Assembly (NCBI RefSeq): GCF_044647545.1
Contig: NZ_CP172818.1
DNA from: Escherichia coli
GTDB lineage: Bacteria > Pseudomonadota > Gammaproteobacteria > Enterobacterales > Enterobacteriaceae
Direction: 5' to 3' (one strand)
Length of the DNA: 64,000 nucleotides
A program made the position numbers and the translations under genes. Shown here in pieces: positions 1 to 52,410 of the stretch. Every line of letters starts with the position of its first letter. The first letter of the stretch is position 1. The notes below the pieces were generated by a model that saw only the letters and a program-made list of their open reading frames with translations, had not been told where the DNA came from and made no database searches.

Positions 1-1205
1 GGGTGACGGTACAGCATGTCGTACGGCAGGCCCAGCTCCAGACCAATCTTACGCACTTCGTCTTTGAACAGCTCTTTCAGCGGTTCAACCAGGCCCATCT
101 TCATCTCTTTCGGCAGGCCGCCCACGTTGTGGTGAGATTTGATGACATGTGCTTTACCGGTTGCAGAAGCAGCAGATTCGATAACGTCAGGGTAGATAGT
201 GCCCTGCGCCAGCCACTTCACGTCTTCCAGTTTCAGTGCTTCTTCATCGAATACTTCAACGAAAACGCGACCGATGATTTTACGTTTTGCTTCCGGATCG
301 TTTTCGCCAGCCAGCGCTGACAGGAAGCGATCTTCTGCCGGTACGTGAACAATGTTCAGACCAAAGTGATCGCCAAACATATCCAGAACCTGCTCTGCTT
401 CGTTGAGACGCAGCAGGCCGTTGTCGACGAATACGCAAGTCAGGTTTTTACCGATAGCGCGGTGCAGCAGCATTGCGGTTACGGAGGAATCCACACCACC
501 AGAGAGGCCGAGGATGACTTTATCGTCGCCTACCTGCTCGCGGATGCGAGCTACAGCATCGTCGATAATTTTCGCTGGCGTCCACAGGGCTTCACACTGG
601 CAGATATCACGCACAAAACGCTCCAGCATGCGCATACCCTGGCGAGTGTGAGTCACTTCCGGGTGGAACTGTACGCCATAGAAGCGTTTTTCTTCGTTAG
701 CCATGATGGCGAACGGGCAGCTTTCGGTGCTGGCTACGGTGATGAAGTCGGACGGGATAGCGGTAACTTTATCGCCGTGGCTCATCCAGACATCGAGCAG
801 AGGTTTACCGTCTGCTGTCAGAGCATCTTCGATACCGCGAACCAGTGCGCTGTCGTTTACGACTTCAACCTGCGCATAGCCAAATTCACGTTCGTTAGAG
901 GCTTCAACATGACCACCCAACTGCATTGCCATGGTCTGCATACCATAGCAAACGCCGAATACCGGTACGCCTGCTTCAAAGACATACTGCGGCGCACGCG
1001 GGCTGTTTTCTTCGGTGGTGCTTTCCGGGCCGCCGGAAAGAATAATGCCGCTTGGATTGAAGTCACGAATTTGTGCTTCTGTCACATCCCACGCCCACAG
1101 TTCGCAGTAAACACCCAGTTCACGCACGCGGCGCGCAACCAGTTGGGTGTACTGAGAACCGAAGTCCAGAATGAGGATGCGATGCTTATGAATGTTTTCC
1201 GTCAT
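1..1205 (-). CDS. guaA: GMP synthase (glutamine-hydrolysing), N-terminal ~400 codons; 3' end lies beyond the window start
   Basis: Minus-strand ATG at 1203-1205 translates [27 protein letters not shown]..., recognisable as GuaA. Absent from the ORF track because its stop is outside the window. The long plus-strand track ORFs 3..320 and 345..1208 are antisense shadows. Confidence 0.92.
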
Positions 1206-1273
1206 TGACGCTTATTCCGAGGCAAGTGAAACAGATAATATAAATCGCCCGACATGAAGTCGGGCGAAGAGAA

Positions 1274-2740
1274 TCAGGAGCCCAGACGGTAGTTCGGGGA
1301 CTCTTTAGTAATGGTCACGTCGTGAACGTGGCTTTCCTGAATGCCCGCACCGCTGATACGTACAAACTCCGCTTTAGTACGCAGTTCGTCGATAGTACCA
1401 CAGCCGGTCAGGCCCATACAGGAGCGCAGGCCGCCCATCTGCTGGTGAATGATCTCTTTCAGGCGACCTTTATAGGCCACGCGACCTTCGATACCTTCCG
1501 GCACCAGTTTGTCGGCAGCGTTGTCGCTCTGGAAGTAACGGTCAGAAGAACCTTTGGACATCGCGCCCAGAGAGCCCATCCCACGGTAAGACTTGTAAGA
1601 ACGGCCCTGGTAGAGCTCGATTTCACCTGGGGATTCTTCAGTACCCGCCAGCATGGAACCTACCATCACCGCGCTTGCACCAGCAGCGATAGCTTTGGCG
1701 ATATCGCCAGAGAAACGAATACCACCGTCAGCGATAACCGGAATCCCGGTGCCTTCCAGGGCTTCTACTGCGTCAGCAACGGCGGTGATCTGCGGAACAC
1801 CTACGCCAGTCACGATACGCGTCGTACAGATAGAGCCAGGGCCGATACCGACTTTAACCGCGCTGCAACCAGCTTCTGCCAGAGCGCGTGCCCCCGCAGC
1901 TGTTGCCACGTTGCCGCCGATGATTTGCAGATCCGGATATTTAGCACGAGTTTCACGGATACGCTGCAGAACGCCTTCAGAGTGACCGTGAGAGGAGTCG
2001 ATCAGCAGAACGTCAACGCCTGCGGCAACCAGCGCGTCGACACGCTCTTCGTTACCAGCGCCAGCGCCAACCGCTGCACCAACACGCAGACGGCCTTGCT
2101 CGTCTTTACAGGCGTTCGGTTTACGTTCCGCTTTCTGGAAGTCTTTCACAGTGATCATGCCGATCAGGTGGAATTCGTCATCAACCACCAGCGCCTTTTC
2201 AACGCGTTTTTCGTGCATTTTTGCCAGCACCACTTCACGGGCTTCGCCTTCACGCACGGTTACCAGACGCTCTTTCGGCGTCATGTAAACGCTAACCGGT
2301 TGATTCAGATCGGTCACAAAACGCACGTCACGACCGGTGATGATGCCGACCAGTTCGTTTTCTTCGGTAACCACCGGGTAACCCGCAAAGCCGTTACGTT
2401 CAGTCAGTTCTTTCACTTCACGCAGGGTGGTTGTCGGCAGCACGGTCTGCGGATCAGTTACCACGCCAGATTCGTGTTTTTTCACACGGCGAACTTCTTC
2501 TGCCTGGCGTTCAATGGACATGTTTTTGTGGATAAAGCCGATACCGCCTTCCTGAGCCAGAGCAATAGCCAGGCGCGCTTCCGTTACGGTATCCATTGCT
2601 GCGGAAAGCATAGGGATATTCAGACGAATAGTTTTCGTCAGCTGGGTGCTGAGGTCAGCAGTATTCGGCAGAACGGTAGAATGAGCAGGAACGAGGAGAA
2701 CGTCGTCAAACGTCAGAGCTTCTTTAGCGATACGTAGCAT
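1274..2740 (-). CDS. guaB: IMP dehydrogenase
   Basis: Track ORF 1274..2809 contains [18 protein letters not shown]... after a 23-codon upstream extension; start set at the internal Met to give 488 aa with CBS and IMPDH catalytic regions. Confidence 0.95.
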
Positions 2741-4245
<1,505 letters not shown>

Positions 4246-4268
4246 AAAAATCGCGTAAAAAGGTGCAT

Positions 4269-4488
4269 TAAGCCAGCACGAATTCAACGCGTTTTTTCGA
4301 TATTAAACCATGCCCATGCTGACAGAAGTAATCCACTGCACCACAAGCTTTTAACACCTGCAACGCCTGATGACACTCAGGACAAAGTGCCTTGATTTCG
4401 GTAAATTTTCTCCCGCAAGATCGACAACGAGCATCTCGCCGTTATCCTGATCAAGCATCATGCTAGATTGTGGACAATGCAGTTCCAT
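4269..4488 (-). pseudogene. yfgJ: yfgJ-like zinc-ribbon small protein, frame-disrupted
   Basis: Minus-strand ATG at 4486-4488 gives MELHCPQSSMMLDQDNGEMLVV... and stops after 45 codons. A second frame encodes ...ARCRSCGRKFTEIKALCPECHQALQVLKACGAVDYFCQHGHGLISKKRVEFVLA* ending at 4269-4271. The start-to-stop span is 220 nt, not a multiple of 3. Too short in either frame to appear in the ORF track. Confidence 0.45.
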
Positions 4489-4557
4489 ATGAAACGCTCC
4501 ACATTCGCAGCCATTCCCTCTCCGTTCAGAAAGGGAAAGCAGATAAAAACACGATAA

Positions 4558-6030
4558 TTACTTACTTTTCTTGATGTGCTTCATCAGACGCTTACGCTTG
4601 CGCATCTGAGTCGGCGTCAGGGTATTACGCTTGTTCGCATACGGGTTTTCCCCTTCTTTGAACTGAATACGAATCGGCGATCCCATTACGTCCAGCGATT
4701 TGCGGAAGTAGTTCATCAGGTAACGCTTGTAGGAATCAGGCAGGTCTTTCACCTGATTACCGTGAATCACCACAATCGGCGGGTTATAACCCCCGGCGTG
4801 GGCATATTTCAGCTTCACTCGACGACCGCGTACCAGCGGCGGTTGGTGATCTTCAACCGCCATCGTCATGATGCGCGTCAGCATAGAGGTCCCCACACGA
4901 CGGGTGGAGCTGTCATACGCTTCACGTACTGATTCAAACAAGTTACCAACACCACTGCCGTGCAAGGCAGAGATAAAGTGCACACGAGCAAAATCGATAA
5001 AGCCCAGACGGAAGTCCAGCGTCTCTTTCACCTGCTCTTTCACTTCCTGGCTCAGGCCGTCCCACTTGTTCACTACAATCACAAGTGAGCGCCCACTATT
5101 GAGAATAAAGCCCAGCAAGGAGAGATCCTGATCGGAAATACCTTCACGCGCATCAATCACCAACATCACCACGTTGGCATCTTCAATGGCCTGCAACGTT
5201 TTGATTACCGAGAACTTCTCTACCGCATCGGTGATTTTGCCGCGTTTACGTACGCCAGCGGTGTCAATGAGCACATACTCACGTCCGTCGCGTTCCATTG
5301 GAATGTAGATACTGTCACGCGTCGTGCCAGGCATGTCGTAAACAACAACGCGTTCTTCACCGAGAATACGGTTAGTGAGCGTAGACTTACCGACGTTCGG
5401 ACGACCCACAATCGCCAGTTTGATCGGCAGACTTTGCGGGTCGAAGTCGTCTTCCTCTTCTTCTTCGCCGTTCTCTTCCGCTTCAAATTGCGCCCAGTAT
5501 TCGGCGTCTTCGTCGACTTCTTCTTGCGGTGCGAGATCTTCCATCCACGGCAGCAGCACGTGCTCCAGCAGACTTAATACGCCACGACCGTGAGACGCGG
5601 CGATCGGGTAGATTTCACCTAAACCAAGCGAGTAGAAATCAACCACTGCCTGATCGGGATCCAGACCGTCAGTTTTGTTTGCCACCAGGAAGGTCGGTTT
5701 TTCACGGGAGCGCAGATGTTTAGCAATCGCTTCATCCGCCGGCATCAGGCCCGCGCGCGCATCCACCATAAACAGTACGACGTCCGCTTCTTCAATCGCC
5801 AGCAGCGACTGTTCCGCCATGCGGGTTTCTACACCGTCTTCTGTGCCATCAATCCCGCCGGTATCAATGCAGATAAACTCACGGCCTTCAATTTCCGCAC
5901 GACCGTACTTACGGTCACGAGTCAGACCCGGGAAATCCGCAACCAGCGCATCTCGGGTGCGAGTTAGACGGTTAAATAACGTGGATTTTCCTACGTTAGG
6001 GCGCCCGACAAGCGCGACCACAGGTACCAT
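4558..6030 (-). CDS. der: Ribosome-associated GTPase Der (EngA), tandem GTPase domains
   Basis: Track ORF 4558..6069 contains [22 protein letters not shown]... after a 13-codon extension; two G domains (GRPNVGKS repeated); 490 aa. Confidence 0.93.
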
Positions 6031-6147
6031 GTTTAAAGCCTCATTTTTATAAATCATCAGACAACGCACGCTATATTCGTGTCGTTGTTAAAAACAGGAA
6101 AACGGCCCCTGTCCAGGAGCCGTTTTCAAAGTGAACGACAGAGACGA

Positions 6148-7326
6148 TTAACGTGTAATAGAGTACACGGTTCCGTCTTTTGCCTGGATCAGCAGTTTGC
6201 CGTCAGCGGCAACCGGTTCAGTCTGGAAACCGGAACTATCAACTTTTTGCTGGGCAACGAAACGACCATCTTCGACGTTAATCCAGTGCAGATAACCTTC
6301 ACTGTCACCTACCACCAGGTTGCCATTATACAGCACCGGAGAAGTCAGCAGGCGATGCAGCAGATCGCTTTGTGTCCACAGCGTAACGCCGCCATCAATG
6401 GTCAACGCCATCACCCGGTCATTTTGATCGACCAGATAGATGCGATTGCCGTCGACGATGAAATCATTCACCGAACCCAGTTCGCGTTTCCACATAATCT
6501 GACCACTGCGCAGATCAAGCGCCGTCAGGTTACCATTATAGGCCAGCGCGAAAACAACGCCGTTAACAACGACGGGTGTCGTGTCAACATCGCTCAGACG
6601 GTCAATTTCGGTAGAACCGGTCGCCTGGGAAATACGCTGCTGCCAAATCATCTGGCCCTGTTCCATCAGCACTGCGCTGACGCGACCATTATCGCCACCC
6701 ACGACGGCCGCACCAAAAGCCGTTGCCGGCGCAGACTCGCCACGCAAAGAGAGCGAAGGCATATCGAGGTTAACTGTCCATTTGACAGCGCCGTCAGCTT
6801 CGTTCAGCGCTTGTAACTGACCGTTACTGGTGTGGATTAACACCAGACCGTCGCTGACCACCGGACGCGAAAGTGCTTCACCCGCGACTTTAGTTTGCCA
6901 TGCCACAGTACCATCGCTGGTATTCAGCGCGTAAACCTGCGCCTTTTCGCTGCCAATGTAGACATGCCCACCAGACACGGTCACACCGCCAGAAAGTAAT
7001 GCAGGCTCTTTAGAGAACCAGCCATCTTTCTCGGCCAGGCTGACAGACCAGATTTCTTTGCCATCATCCGCATTCAGCGCTTTTACTAAACCAGCGCGGT
7101 CCGCTGCATAGACAACGTTGTCCGCCAGTGCCGGATGAAGATTGGAATAGAAGTTGCCAATGCCGCTACCAACGGAAGTGCTCCACGCAGTAGTCGGCGT
7201 AAACTGGTTTTCAACGGTTGGCAATGGGGACATCTTTACCACATCTTCTTCGCTGTTAAACAGCGAACAGCCGCTTAAAAGGGTAACGGAAAGCAGTCCT
7301 GGCAGCAGTAATTTACGCAATTGCAT
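6148..7326 (-). CDS. bamB: Outer membrane protein assembly factor BamB (lipoprotein, beta-propeller)
   Basis: 392 aa, MQLRKLLLPGLLSVTLLSGCSLF... with lipobox LSGC and PQQ-like repeats. Confidence 0.93.
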   Translation of the reverse strand: MQLRKLLLPGLLSVTLLSGCSLFNSEEDVVKMSPLPTVENQFTPTTAWSTSVGSGIGNFYSNLHPALADNVVYAADRAGLVKALNADDGKEIWSVSLAEKDGWFSKEPALLSGGVTVSGGHVYIGSEKAQVYALNTSDGTVAWQTKVAGEALSRPVVSDGLVLIHTSNGQLQALNEADGAVKWTVNLDMPSLSLRGESAPATAFGAAVVGGDNGRVSAVLMEQGQMIWQQRISQATGSTEIDRLSDVDTTPVVVNGVVFALAYNGNLTALDLRSGQIMWKRELGSVNDFIVDGNRIYLVDQNDRVMALTIDGGVTLWTQSDLLHRLLTSPVLYNGNLVVGDSEGYLHWINVEDGRFVAQQKVDSSGFQTEPVAADGKLLIQAKDGTVYSITR

Positions 7327-7336
7327 CGGGTCCCTC

Positions 7337-7957
7337 TCAGATGGACAAATTATTAATTTTCATCTGCATCATTTCGCTCAGTGCCGGGGTAACATCGCTT
7401 TTCACGCCTGCTTCCCATGCACTACGCGCACCTTGCTTATCACCTTTGCTCAGCAATGCTTCGCCACGCAGGTCGGCAACAATGGCAGCCCACCCTTCAC
7501 CTTTGATGGTATCGAGGGTCTTCAGCGCGGCATCAGCCTGCTTGAGCTGTACCTGAACGCGGGCAAGACGCAGATTTATCACGGCTTTGAGATTTTCATC
7601 GCTCGTGTCCGCCAATCCCTGTTGTAACTGGGTGGCAGCTTTCTCTAGTTCATTTTTGTCAACAAATTGCTGCGCAAGTTCCAAAGAAGCCAGCGCACCA
7701 TAGGTATTTTTATTTTCAGCAGCAAATTTTTCCGCCGCCGGGATGCTATCCGGTTTGCCTTCGCTCACTGCGGTAACCGCATTTTGATAGGCAAGAGAAG
7801 CGGAGCGTGCAGAATCAACCTGATGGCTATTCCAGTAGCGCCAGCCAATCAGTGCGCCAACGCCCAAAATCACCCCAACAGCCAGTGCTTTGCCATTTTC
7901 AGCAAAAAAGCGTTTAACCGCTTCAACCTGGTCGTTTTCGTTCTCGTAAATTTCCAC
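7337..7957 (-). CDS. yfgM: Ancillary SecYEG translocon subunit / TPR-like membrane protein YfgM
   Basis: 206 aa, MEIYENENDQVEAVKRFFAENGKALAVGVILGVGALIGW...; single TM segment followed by a TPR-like domain. Confidence 0.9.
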   Translation of the reverse strand: MEIYENENDQVEAVKRFFAENGKALAVGVILGVGALIGWRYWNSHQVDSARSASLAYQNAVTAVSEGKPDSIPAAEKFAAENKNTYGALASLELAQQFVDKNELEKAATQLQQGLADTSDENLKAVINLRLARVQVQLKQADAALKTLDTIKGEGWAAIVADLRGEALLSKGDKQGARSAWEAGVKSDVTPALSEMMQMKINNLSI

Positions 7958-7974
7958 GCTGTCCTTCTCCTTCC

Positions 7975-9249
7975 TTAACCCAGTAACGTGCGCAAATGCG
8001 CGGCTACGCTATCCTGCGCAACTGCCGTTTGCTCACCAGAGCGCAAATCCTTCACTACTGCTGTGCCGTTAGCCACTTCAGACTCACCCAGCACCACAGC
8101 AACGCGGGCACCCCATTTATCAGCACGGGCAAACTGTTTCTTAAAGTTGCCGCCGCCGTGGTTGGTCATCAATTTCACGCCCGGTAATTCATCACGCAGA
8201 CGCTCAGCTAATGCCATAGCCGCAGATTGTGTATCAGCACCTGAAGCCACCAGGTATATATCGACAACAGGATCGGCTTTAAATTCCGGATTAACGGCCT
8301 GTACTAACAATACAAGACGTTCGAGGCCCATCGCAAAACCGACAGCCGGTGTTGCACGACCGCCCAGTTGTTCCACCAGACCGTCATAACGACCGCCTGC
8401 ACACACGGTGCCCTGGGAGCCGAGACTGTTAGTCACCCACTCGAAAACGGTACGGTTATAGTAATCCAGACCACGCACCAGACGCTGGTTGACGGTGTAA
8501 GCGATCCCCGCGCTCTCAAGCAGTTTGCACAGACCGGCAAAATGCTCACGAGATTCCTCGTCCAGATAATCGCCTAATGCCGGAGCGTCGTTGAGAAGCG
8601 CCTGCACTTCCGGATTTTTTGAATCCAGCACGCGCAGCGGGTTAGTGTACATGCGGCGTTTGCAGTCTTCGTCCAGCTTTTCTTTATGCTGCTCAAGGAA
8701 TGCCACCAGCGCATCGCGGTAATTGGCGCGTGCTTCCAGCGAACCGATAGAGTTCAGCTCAAGAGTTACGTGCTCGGAAATACCCAGCGCGCGCCACCAG
8801 CGGGCAGTGAGCATAATCAGTTCGGCGTCGATATCCGGACCTTGCAGACCGAAAACTTCGCAGCCCAACTGATGGAACTGACGATAACGCCCTTTCTGCG
8901 GACGCTCGTGACGGAACATAGGCCCGATATACCACAGACGCTGTTCCTGATTGTACAGAAGACCATGCTCGATGCCGGCGCGTACACAGCCCGCCGTCCC
9001 TTCAGGGCGCAGAGTCAGGCTGTCGCCATTGCGATCCTCAAAGGTGTACATCTCTTTTTCAACCACGTCGGTGACTTCACCAATCGCACGTTTGAATAGC
9101 GGGGTCTGCTCTACAATCGGCAAGCGGATTTCACTGTAACCGTAGCTGCCGAGCACGTTTTTCAGTGTGCCTTCAATGCGCTGCCAGATGGCCGTTTCGC
9201 CAGGCAGGTAATCGTTCATGCCGCGAATGGCTTGAATGTTTTTTGCCAC
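7975..9249 (-). CDS. hisS: Histidine--tRNA ligase
   Basis: 424 aa, [33 protein letters not shown]...; class II aaRS motifs. Confidence 0.95.
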
Positions 9250-22053: not shown

Positions 22054-22469
22054 TGCTGGTCTGTTCCCTCAATATACCAAACACCCACGACACAAACTCC
22101 TAACCTCTTTCAACAAAAAATTTCTTTATTATATCCACTGCGGCCCTTTCCGCCAACTTAAAAAATGTTCGGTAATAAAATAACCTGGCTTATTAGTCCG
22201 AATTCGGACAAATATAAACAAATCAGCTCAATATTAAAAATACTAATCGGTAAAAGATATTACTTAAACGTGTAAATTCACTTTCTTTAAACAACAAAAA
22301 ACCGCCAAAATCAGGCGGTTTTTTGTTGCTGGTTTGGTTCGCGGCCTTTCCAGCAGATTGGCTTGTGTTGCATGAGCAACGCAGGTGCTTCACAGCAAAG
22401 CAATACTCGCCAGTAACTCTCTTTTTGTCAAGCGAAAGAGAGTAATCATTGTTTATTTAGCGTATTATC

Positions 22470-22776: not shown

Positions 22777-23553
22777 TTAGATTATCCGGTTCTGTTTAAA
22801 GTCACGCAAAAAACCACCCCAGCGACGTTCATAGAATGGCACAATATGTTCGGTAATAAAGTGGCTAATTCCTTTTTCCCCTTTTTTCACCTGACAAATA
22901 TCGATGGGTTCATCGCCAGGTAATGTATCGGTCGCTACACTTCCCGCCGCCTGAATAATTTCTTCGATATCACCATCGGCTTCAATGCCAATAAGTAAAT
23001 TAGGCTGTGCCTCTTTGTTCTCTTTAATTGAACAAATAAAAGCACGCTTCACCGGCTTAATAGTTTTAAATAAGGTGGTGAGAGAATCAATCATTTGTGC
23101 TGGTGGCTCTGCGACTTCCGATAATATCAGCGATTCACCGCCCTCCAGTACTTCCTGGCTGCTCAGCGGATTTCCTTCTTCACCAATCAACAAACTGATT
23201 TCACGCGGCATAAATTCTTTACCGGTTGGCAGTTTGGCATTAAGGAAGAGCGTTTCGCCAAGGGTCATCTCAAACAATGTGCGAACGGGCATTACGACAA
23301 ATGCCTGTTCGTCTTCAACCGCCTGTTGAAGTGCTTCTAACGAGGTAAAAAAAGGAATGACGCTGGTGCCGTCTTCTTTTTCCCAGTGCTGTAAATCAAG
23401 CGCGCTATCTTCAACCACAGCCTCGCCCTGCGCCGCCGTACCCGGCACCCAGACGGTGGATTCCAGTAGAGTACGGAAAAAGGCCGGGCGGTGCGCCGGT
23501 TCGGTTGCTGCTTTTTCCAGCAGGTCTTCAAGTTCATTTTTTGTTTCGGACAT
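22777..23553 (-). CDS. sseB: Enhanced serine sensitivity protein SseB
   Basis: Track ORF 22777..23562 contains MSETKNELEDLLEKAATEPAHRPAFFRTL... after a 3-codon extension; 258 aa. Confidence 0.88.
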   Translation of the reverse strand: MSETKNELEDLLEKAATEPAHRPAFFRTLLESTVWVPGTAAQGEAVVEDSALDLQHWEKEDGTSVIPFFTSLEALQQAVEDEQAFVVMPVRTLFEMTLGETLFLNAKLPTGKEFMPREISLLIGEEGNPLSSQEVLEGGESLILSEVAEPPAQMIDSLTTLFKTIKPVKRAFICSIKENKEAQPNLLIGIEADGDIEEIIQAAGSVATDTLPGDEPIDICQVKKGEKGISHFITEHIVPFYERRWGGFLRDFKQNRII

Positions 23554-24979: not shown

Positions 24980-25027
24980 TTTAGTTATCCTTATTCGTTT
25001 AACGCAAAACGGGTCCCCCCAGCCCAT

Positions 25028-30798: not shown

Positions 30799-30873
30799 TT
30801 GTCGGATGCGGTGTGAACACCTTATCCGACCTGGACCAAGCCTGATAAGACGCGTTAAGCATCGCATCAGGCA
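30799..30873. repeat. REP element pair
   Basis: TGTCGGATGCGGTGTGAACACCTTATCCGACC and GCCTGATAAGACGCGTTAAGCATCGCATCAGGCA between the iscR promoter and the trmJ stop. Confidence 0.65.
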
Positions 30874-52354: not shown

Positions 52355-52410
52355 TGGCGCAATAACGTAGAAAGGCTTCCCGAAGGAAGCCTACAGATTA
52401 ACCGTTTCGC

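Follow-up and report, generated by a model that had tools for sequence, protein, structure and literature searches.

A split yfgJ in an ST648-clade Escherichia coli chromosome probably belongs to a 356-nt non-biological chimera rather than to lineage gene decay

Does the broken yfgJ locus between der and xseA in this Escherichia coli sequence record gene decay in a lineage, or is it an error of the sequence itself? The locus lies in a window of 64,000 nt (the whole stretch of DNA analyzed here), in which a zinc-ribbon reading frame opens on the minus strand in one frame and closes in another. A preliminary description made from the letters had called it a pseudogene or a sequence error; this pair of choices was supported by comparison with other genomes, which favored an error of the sequence, in the form of a chimeric consensus, rather than natural pseudogenization. 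The identity of the gene and the split of its frame are real features of the sequence as written, and the elements of the locus are the following.

2902–4245, plus strand: xseA, 447 codons, ending in a tail that is hybrid and frameshifted, with a lesion at about 4225–4231 (456 aa in K-12, 455 aa in ST648)
4268–4441, minus strand: C-terminal frame of yfgJ, RRDARCRSCGRKFTEIKALCPECHQALQ...VEFVLA and the stop, corresponding to positions 18–66 of the 67 in the PF07191 model
4351–4488, minus strand: N-terminal ORF of yfgJ, ATG at 4486–4488, 45 codons, MELHCPQSSMMLDQDNGEMLVVDLAGENLPKSRHFVLSVIRRCRC, starting MELHCPQSS and losing the frame after DQDNGE
4405–4411, minus strand: yfgJ lesion 3, one additional in-frame codon, a blend (GGGAGAAAATTTACC) between the K-12 and ST648 alleles
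4435–4437, minus strand: yfgJ lesion 2, net +2 relative to K-12 and −1 relative to the ST648 allele, frame-breaking
4458–4466, minus strand: yfgJ lesion 1, TGT to TCT (zinc ligand Cys8 to Ser, at 4466) with a compensating −1/+1 indel pair, turning CQHV into SSMM
4558–6030, minus strand: der (ribosome biogenesis GTPase), intact, 100% identical to ST648-clade genomes

The yfgJ-like zinc-ribbon identity given in the preliminary description was borne out by alignment with K-12 YfgJ (b2510; 71 aa; PF07191, Zn_ribbon_6/DUF1407), by a match of the C-terminal frame to the PF07191 Zn_ribbon_6 profile (E 1.4e-21) and by a match of the frame-repaired gene to PDB 2JNE, the solved structure of E. coli YfgJ (124.8 bits). 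Similar to K-12 yfgJ, the broken gene lies directly downstream of der and tail-to-tail with xseA, and the position directly downstream of der is also found in other Enterobacteriaceae loci. YfgJ and PF07191 represent a family of double zinc ribbons with a poorly defined role in the cell; 2JNE is an NMR structure of the E. coli protein, and 2JRP is the entry for the Salmonella homologue. The window copy matches the family profile, and it contains no single ORF of ∼71 aa. The first cysteine ligand motif of YfgJ (CPxC at residues 5–8) is altered as well, with CPQS in place of CPQC. In the sequences compared, the N-terminal zinc ribbon of K-12-type YfgJ is strongly derived (QCQHVLDQDNGHARCRSCGEFIEMK); ST648-type and other Enterobacteriaceae YfgJ proteins share xCxxPLERNGETAHCxxCxKDFTVQ, and the C-terminal ribbon is almost invariant.

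The ORF list and the translation confirmed the minus-strand ATG at 4486–4488 and the 45-codon ORF that it opens, which begins MELHCPQSSMMLDQDNGEMLVV in translation, and also the destruction of the first CxxC (CPQS) through the change of TGT to TCT. The clean C-terminal zinc-ribbon half was likewise found where it had been described, in another frame offset by two bases from the 45-codon ORF, reading ...ARCRSCGRKFTEIKALCPECHQALQVLKACGAVDYFCQHGHGLISKKRVEFVLA up to the stop codon at 4268–4270; it has no full-length start codon, its sole start being an internal TTG that yields only a 31-aa ORF (4268–4363). Counted from the ATG to the TAA that closes the conserved C-terminal half, the locus (4268–4488, minus strand) spans 221 nt (221 mod 3 = 2), so that the earlier statement of a length not divisible by 3 holds and the figure of 220 nt does not. 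Aligned with K-12 yfgJ (216 nt, 71 aa), the window copy carries four changes, in agreement with the proposal of at least two lesion patches near 4456–4467 and 4396–4437; it differs from K-12 YfgJ in lacking a single open frame, in the replacement of Cys8 by Ser and in net indels of +2 and +3. The CAATCT of lesion 1 is also present in the ST648 allele in another register, and the states at 4458–4463 and 4466 were found in none of 10 natural yfgJ alleles. At lesion 2 the window reads GGCGAGATGCTC, compared with GGC--CATGCGC in K-12 (+2) and GGCGAGACTGCTC in ST648 (−1).

Judged by sequence identity, the window is part of an ST648-clade E. coli chromosome. Positions 1–4201 (guaA to xseA) and 4558–8500 (der to hisS) showed 100.0% identity to many complete genomes of this clade, which include ST648 (NZ_CP008697.1), MS6198, ECONIH1, IMT16316 and FDAARGOS_497. 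The whole 64 kb is collinear with strain ST648, minus an island, and no private SNP of the window was found across the 64 kb in comparison with strains ST648 and FDAARGOS_497. The public assembly of strain ST648 has single-base indels of its own relative to the window and FDAARGOS_497, at window-equivalent positions 22807, 41869, 59728 and 63735; two of these fall in genes annotated there as frameshifted (sseB and yphA), both of which are annotated as intact in FDAARGOS_497, and the window agrees with the latter.

In all of those relatives xseA and der lie ∼12 kb apart, and the interval is occupied by an adhesin gene of 8 kb, by sinI and sinH, and by a yfgJ that is intact (71 aa) and belongs to a different allele, the ST648 type (WP_022645978.1, MELNCPICKTPLERNGETAHCATCDKDFTVQALCPECHQALQ...). 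The comparison with close relatives that had been proposed as a check thus returned an intact yfgJ in every one examined, as a different allele beside the 12-kb island. The sinH, sinI and giant adhesin genes, present between yfgJ and xseA in all close relatives, are absent from the window, and unlike the intact ST648-type gene that the island follows, the window copy is a blend with K-12 sequence. ST648-type yfgJ (WP_022645978.1) borders an ila/CS54-like island (sinH, sinI, ratA-like adhesin), and the presence of the ila/CS54-like cluster between xseA and yfgJ is known to vary, the region being either empty or filled (PMC12928451). The anomaly is larger than the yfgJ ORF, taking in the end of xseA, and its limits are given below.

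4201/4202, no strand: abrupt change from ST648-type xseA to K-12-type sequence
4202–4557, no strand: orphan patch of 356 nt, bounded on the right by der, replacing ∼12 kb (giant adhesin, sinI, sinH, ST648-type yfgJ)

Up to the junction, xseA positions 4077–4201 were 100% identical to ST648 and ∼30% divergent from K-12 (31 of 100 positions). The ST648 protein ends in ...GDGVVISEVSAVTKSRKPRKKA before its stop, and the XseA tails of the window and K-12 differ from each other. Among real genomes, chromosomes with the island (ST648-type) and without it (K-12-type) diverge by ∼30% over the final ∼125 nt of xseA, mostly at third codon positions, with the XseA tails still alignable as protein; yfgJ and the der–yfgJ spacer diverge to a similar degree. 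This pattern of divergence suggests that the ila island and its immediate flanks may have a history separate from, and much older than, that of the surrounding chromosome.

To resolve its composition, the patch was aligned with ten alleles, five of the K-12 type and five of the ST648 type (S-type). Positions 4202–4303 proved to be almost pure K-12-type sequence, the ST648 counterpart of this part (the xseA end and the DNA beyond) being too divergent for alignment at the DNA level, and positions 4304–4557 are a per-site mosaic of K-12 and ST648 states. Over 4268–4557, the 133 informative columns comprised 71 K-12 states, 38 ST648 states and 24 that were neither, with 34 switches between the K and S types in 290 nt, alternating every 1–5 nt, between alleles ∼25% divergent. 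Twenty-two states occurred in 0 of the 10 alleles, and these were clustered at the lesion sites. In comparison with K-12, the patch is nearly identical over its final ∼100 nt, and the C-terminal half is ∼95% identical as protein; DNA identity is 84% over 293 nt, with ST648-allele bases at the 38 informative columns. The K-12 and ST648 yfgJ alleles themselves align poorly, at ∼75% identity. Where the K-type alleles disagree among themselves, the patch has the K-12 allele, e.g., CGATC (CRSCG), and where the S-type alleles disagree it has ST648's own, e.g., CAGGCG (His-Gln-Ala), the other YfgJ proteins examined having His-Gln-Pro or His-Lys-Pro at this place; CCTGAGTGTCAT is a further ST648-specific state. 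Since the patch follows both K-12-specific and ST648-specific states, both of its parents are modern alleles, and an ancient intermediate is ruled out.

The patch has no counterpart in the collections searched, although a sequence missing from databases may still exist in nature. It was exactly matched in 0 of 5,426 complete E. coli genomes, among which the best DNA identity was 87% over 401 nt, 84.3% for the gene with its leader and 79.7% for the 5′ part; all of the best matches were K-12-type alleles, a type of yfgJ carried by 3,659 of these genomes. The 4201/4202 junction was absent from the same 5,426 genomes and its 32-mer from the JGI metagenomes, and a patch-specific 25-mer had no exact match in the metagenome collection. 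Neither the 447-aa XseA nor the 45-aa ORF was recorded among 153 billion gene positions, in an index that includes SRA-wide assemblies and in which the ST648 XseA, used as control, was recorded in 8,769 blocks. The frame-repaired protein found nothing nearer than K-12 YfgJ (85%) among 5.8 billion clusters. No allele closer than 71% amino acid identity, and no K-12-type yfgJ allele, was seen among the best 80 of 140 GTDB species-representative loci. One record at 95–99% identity appeared in the patch search; it was not reproduced with a gene-only query and is probably a short flank match. One of the 5,426 genomes labeled E. coli gave no match to the guaA–xseA or der–hisS core genes and is possibly mislabelled or aberrant.

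The only other private differences between the window and the ST648 clade were found at the following places.

22063–22164, no strand: site A, the first of ST648's two tandem ryfA/timP units missing
22223, no strand: a single C deleted, a deletion-only difference from ST648
25003–25024, no strand: site B, five small deletions within a terminator hairpin, deletion-only relative to ST648
30834–30836, no strand: site C, 13 nt missing within a REP element, deletion-only relative to ST648
52392–52393, no strand: site D, TTTTTCA missing after a terminator hairpin, deletion-only relative to ST648

At site A, one ryfA copy was counted in the window and two in ST648 (Rfam), K-12 being likewise without ST648's additional copy; both ryfA/timP (type I toxin) units are present in all ST648-clade genomes. 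The 68 nt at 22064–22131 are all contained, in order, in the true ST648 sequence, and look like what would remain after the loss of roughly half of its bases, mostly G: the longest common subsequence was 68 of 68, shuffled sequence reaching 54.8 on average and 60 at most. The surroundings are G-poor (a 106-nt stretch with only 6 G), and the match to the IS128 sRNA fell from 213 to 188 bits. Bisulfite-like G-to-A conversion and adapter sequence were considered as sources of the G-poor 22064–22131 and rejected; inspection supported neither, and the stretch can be derived from the true sequence by deletions alone. Neither site A nor sites B and C were shared by any of the complete genomes checked. 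Sites B–D each fall at a place where K-12 has an additional REP/BIME block of ∼130–170 nt, and the large structural differences (>100 nt) that separate ST648 from K-12 across the 64 kb number five, coinciding exactly with sites A–D and the yfgJ patch. The window contains no insertion of more than 10 nt relative to K-12.

Decay of a lineage gene would leave traces in relatives or lie a few mutations from a known allele; the arrangement recurred in no independent assembly or relative, and the 34 switches and 22 novel states in 290 nt place it well beyond such a distance. That the split gene is functional, being read by programmed −1 ribosomal frameshifting or giving two peptides, is scarcely credible. 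The N-terminal ORF does overlap the start of the open C-terminal frame, and a shift could in principle join both, but the overlap (GAT AAC GGC GAG ATG CTC) contains no slippery heptamer (no X XXY YYZ motif at 4430–4450), the Cys8 zinc ligand is lost, and the arrangement is conserved in no other genome. An old third yfgJ allele, intermediate between those of K-12 and ST648, which became a pseudogene and either descended or was introduced from an Escherichia lineage not yet sampled, is very improbable. Repair of one base (GAGA-TGCTC to GAGACTGCTC) and of Ser8 gives a plausible and intermediate-looking YfgJ of 73 aa; against this stand the lack of any relative, intact or broken, nearer than 85% amino acid identity in the searches, the modern parentage indicated by ST648's own HQA and a K-12-specific state among the K-like ones, and flanks that are 100% ST648 up to the edges of the patch. 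As to donors elsewhere in the genus, Escherichia whittamii and other Escherichia representatives have ST648-like alleles with 64–67% amino acid identity, and such a donor was rejected on a survey of the best 80 of 140 loci, a set in which E. fergusonii and E. albertii do not figure directly.

A very recent private event deserves more consideration and is still unlikely: an ST648 cell may have lost the ila island through recombination with incoming K-12-like DNA, with an inactivated hybrid yfgJ and truncation of the xseA tail as the scar. The xseA–yfgJ interval is known to vary, being empty or holding an ila/CS54-like cluster (PMC12928451), donors of K-12 type are plentiful (3,659 of 5,426 genomes), and the given sequence is internally consistent. 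Homologous replacement would nevertheless carry donor sequence through xseA 4077–4201, which is 100% ST648-type; 34 parental switches in 290 nt cannot arise by crossovers between alleles ∼25% divergent; and the event, seen in no other assembly, must coincide with four other deletion-only lesions and zero SNPs. In one form of such a scar in real DNA, left once by loss of the ila island in an ST648 cell, a heteroduplex of incoming K-12-type and resident strands would have been resolved mismatch by mismatch into an extremely fine-grained hybrid, with deletions clustered at hairpins and REP elements in that cell; this too is rather improbable.

The composition of the patch is chimeric, the patch is unique in the collections searched, and it occurs together with the other lesions of the window. 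A natural sister strain is expected to differ mostly by SNPs, and the window has none and five complex lesions, which argues for a non-biological reading. The broken yfgJ is accordingly best explained, with good probability on these sequence comparisons, as part of a 356-nt non-biological chimera and not as lineage gene decay. We infer a pipeline of the kind of reference-guided consensus, of gap patching with partial polishing, or of some other lossy copying. Assemblies that are reference-guided, patched or partially polished can carry artefacts of reference bias or chimeric consensus, and the window resembles such artefacts in that it lacks insertions relative to the scaffold, keeps scaffold sequence where sample data cannot align, has divergent stretches converted only in part and with spurious frameshifts, and shows lesions only at sites of structural variation. 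It is unlike the textbook outcome of any one pipeline at sites B–D and in the G-poor subsequence of site A.

For the chimera, the true locus would be expected to read xseA, giant adhesin, sinI, sinH, an intact ST648-type yfgJ (71 aa, WP_022645978.1) and der. ST648-type data may have been fitted to a K-12-like structure, or some other step may have re-derived the sequence with loss, so that large insertions relative to K-12 would be dropped and K-12 sequence kept wherever no close ST648 counterpart could overwrite it. Between the poorly aligning yfgJ alleles, differences would be converted only in part, producing a base-by-base blend with out-of-register joins, and these joins would account for the Cys8-to-Ser change, the yfgJ frameshift and the frameshifted XseA tail. 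Some observations speak against parts of this scheme. Sites B–D carry ST648-type sequence with additional losses and not K-12 sequence, the divergent xseA 4077–4201 was converted perfectly while yfgJ was not, and the G-poor subsequence at 22064–22131 is an unusual type of error; a plain K-12 consensus does not account for these. The simple form, a K-12 reference with SNPs applied, was set aside as weakened by the ST648-type sites B–D, and the broader form of a K-12-like structure was kept. Raw long-read error was rejected: random errors could not yield states specific to ST648 and to K-12, and the remainder of the 64 kb is free of errors. Graph-based chimerism in a mixed or metagenomic assembly was rejected too; its contigs would contain real k-mers only, and the patch is at most 84–87% identical to any real allele.

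The broken yfgJ holds no biological novelty, and neither the yfgJ break, nor the XseA tail, nor the missing island should be taken as biology; the value of the finding lies mainly in quality control. A real patch would amount to an oddity of recombination and repair, with no new gene or system, and a true mismatch-by-mismatch scar would represent unusual natural recombination and repair between sequences ∼25% divergent. The window illustrates a general signature by which such a chimera may be recognized from the assembled sequence alone: the flanks match a known clade exactly, private SNPs are lacking, every lesion coincides with a structural difference from a common reference, and two known alleles alternate site by site. 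ST648 is an ExPEC-associated clade, and a reading at face value would wrongly score this ST648 strain as having no sinH/sinI/adhesin island, a yfgJ pseudogene and a truncated large subunit of exonuclease VII.
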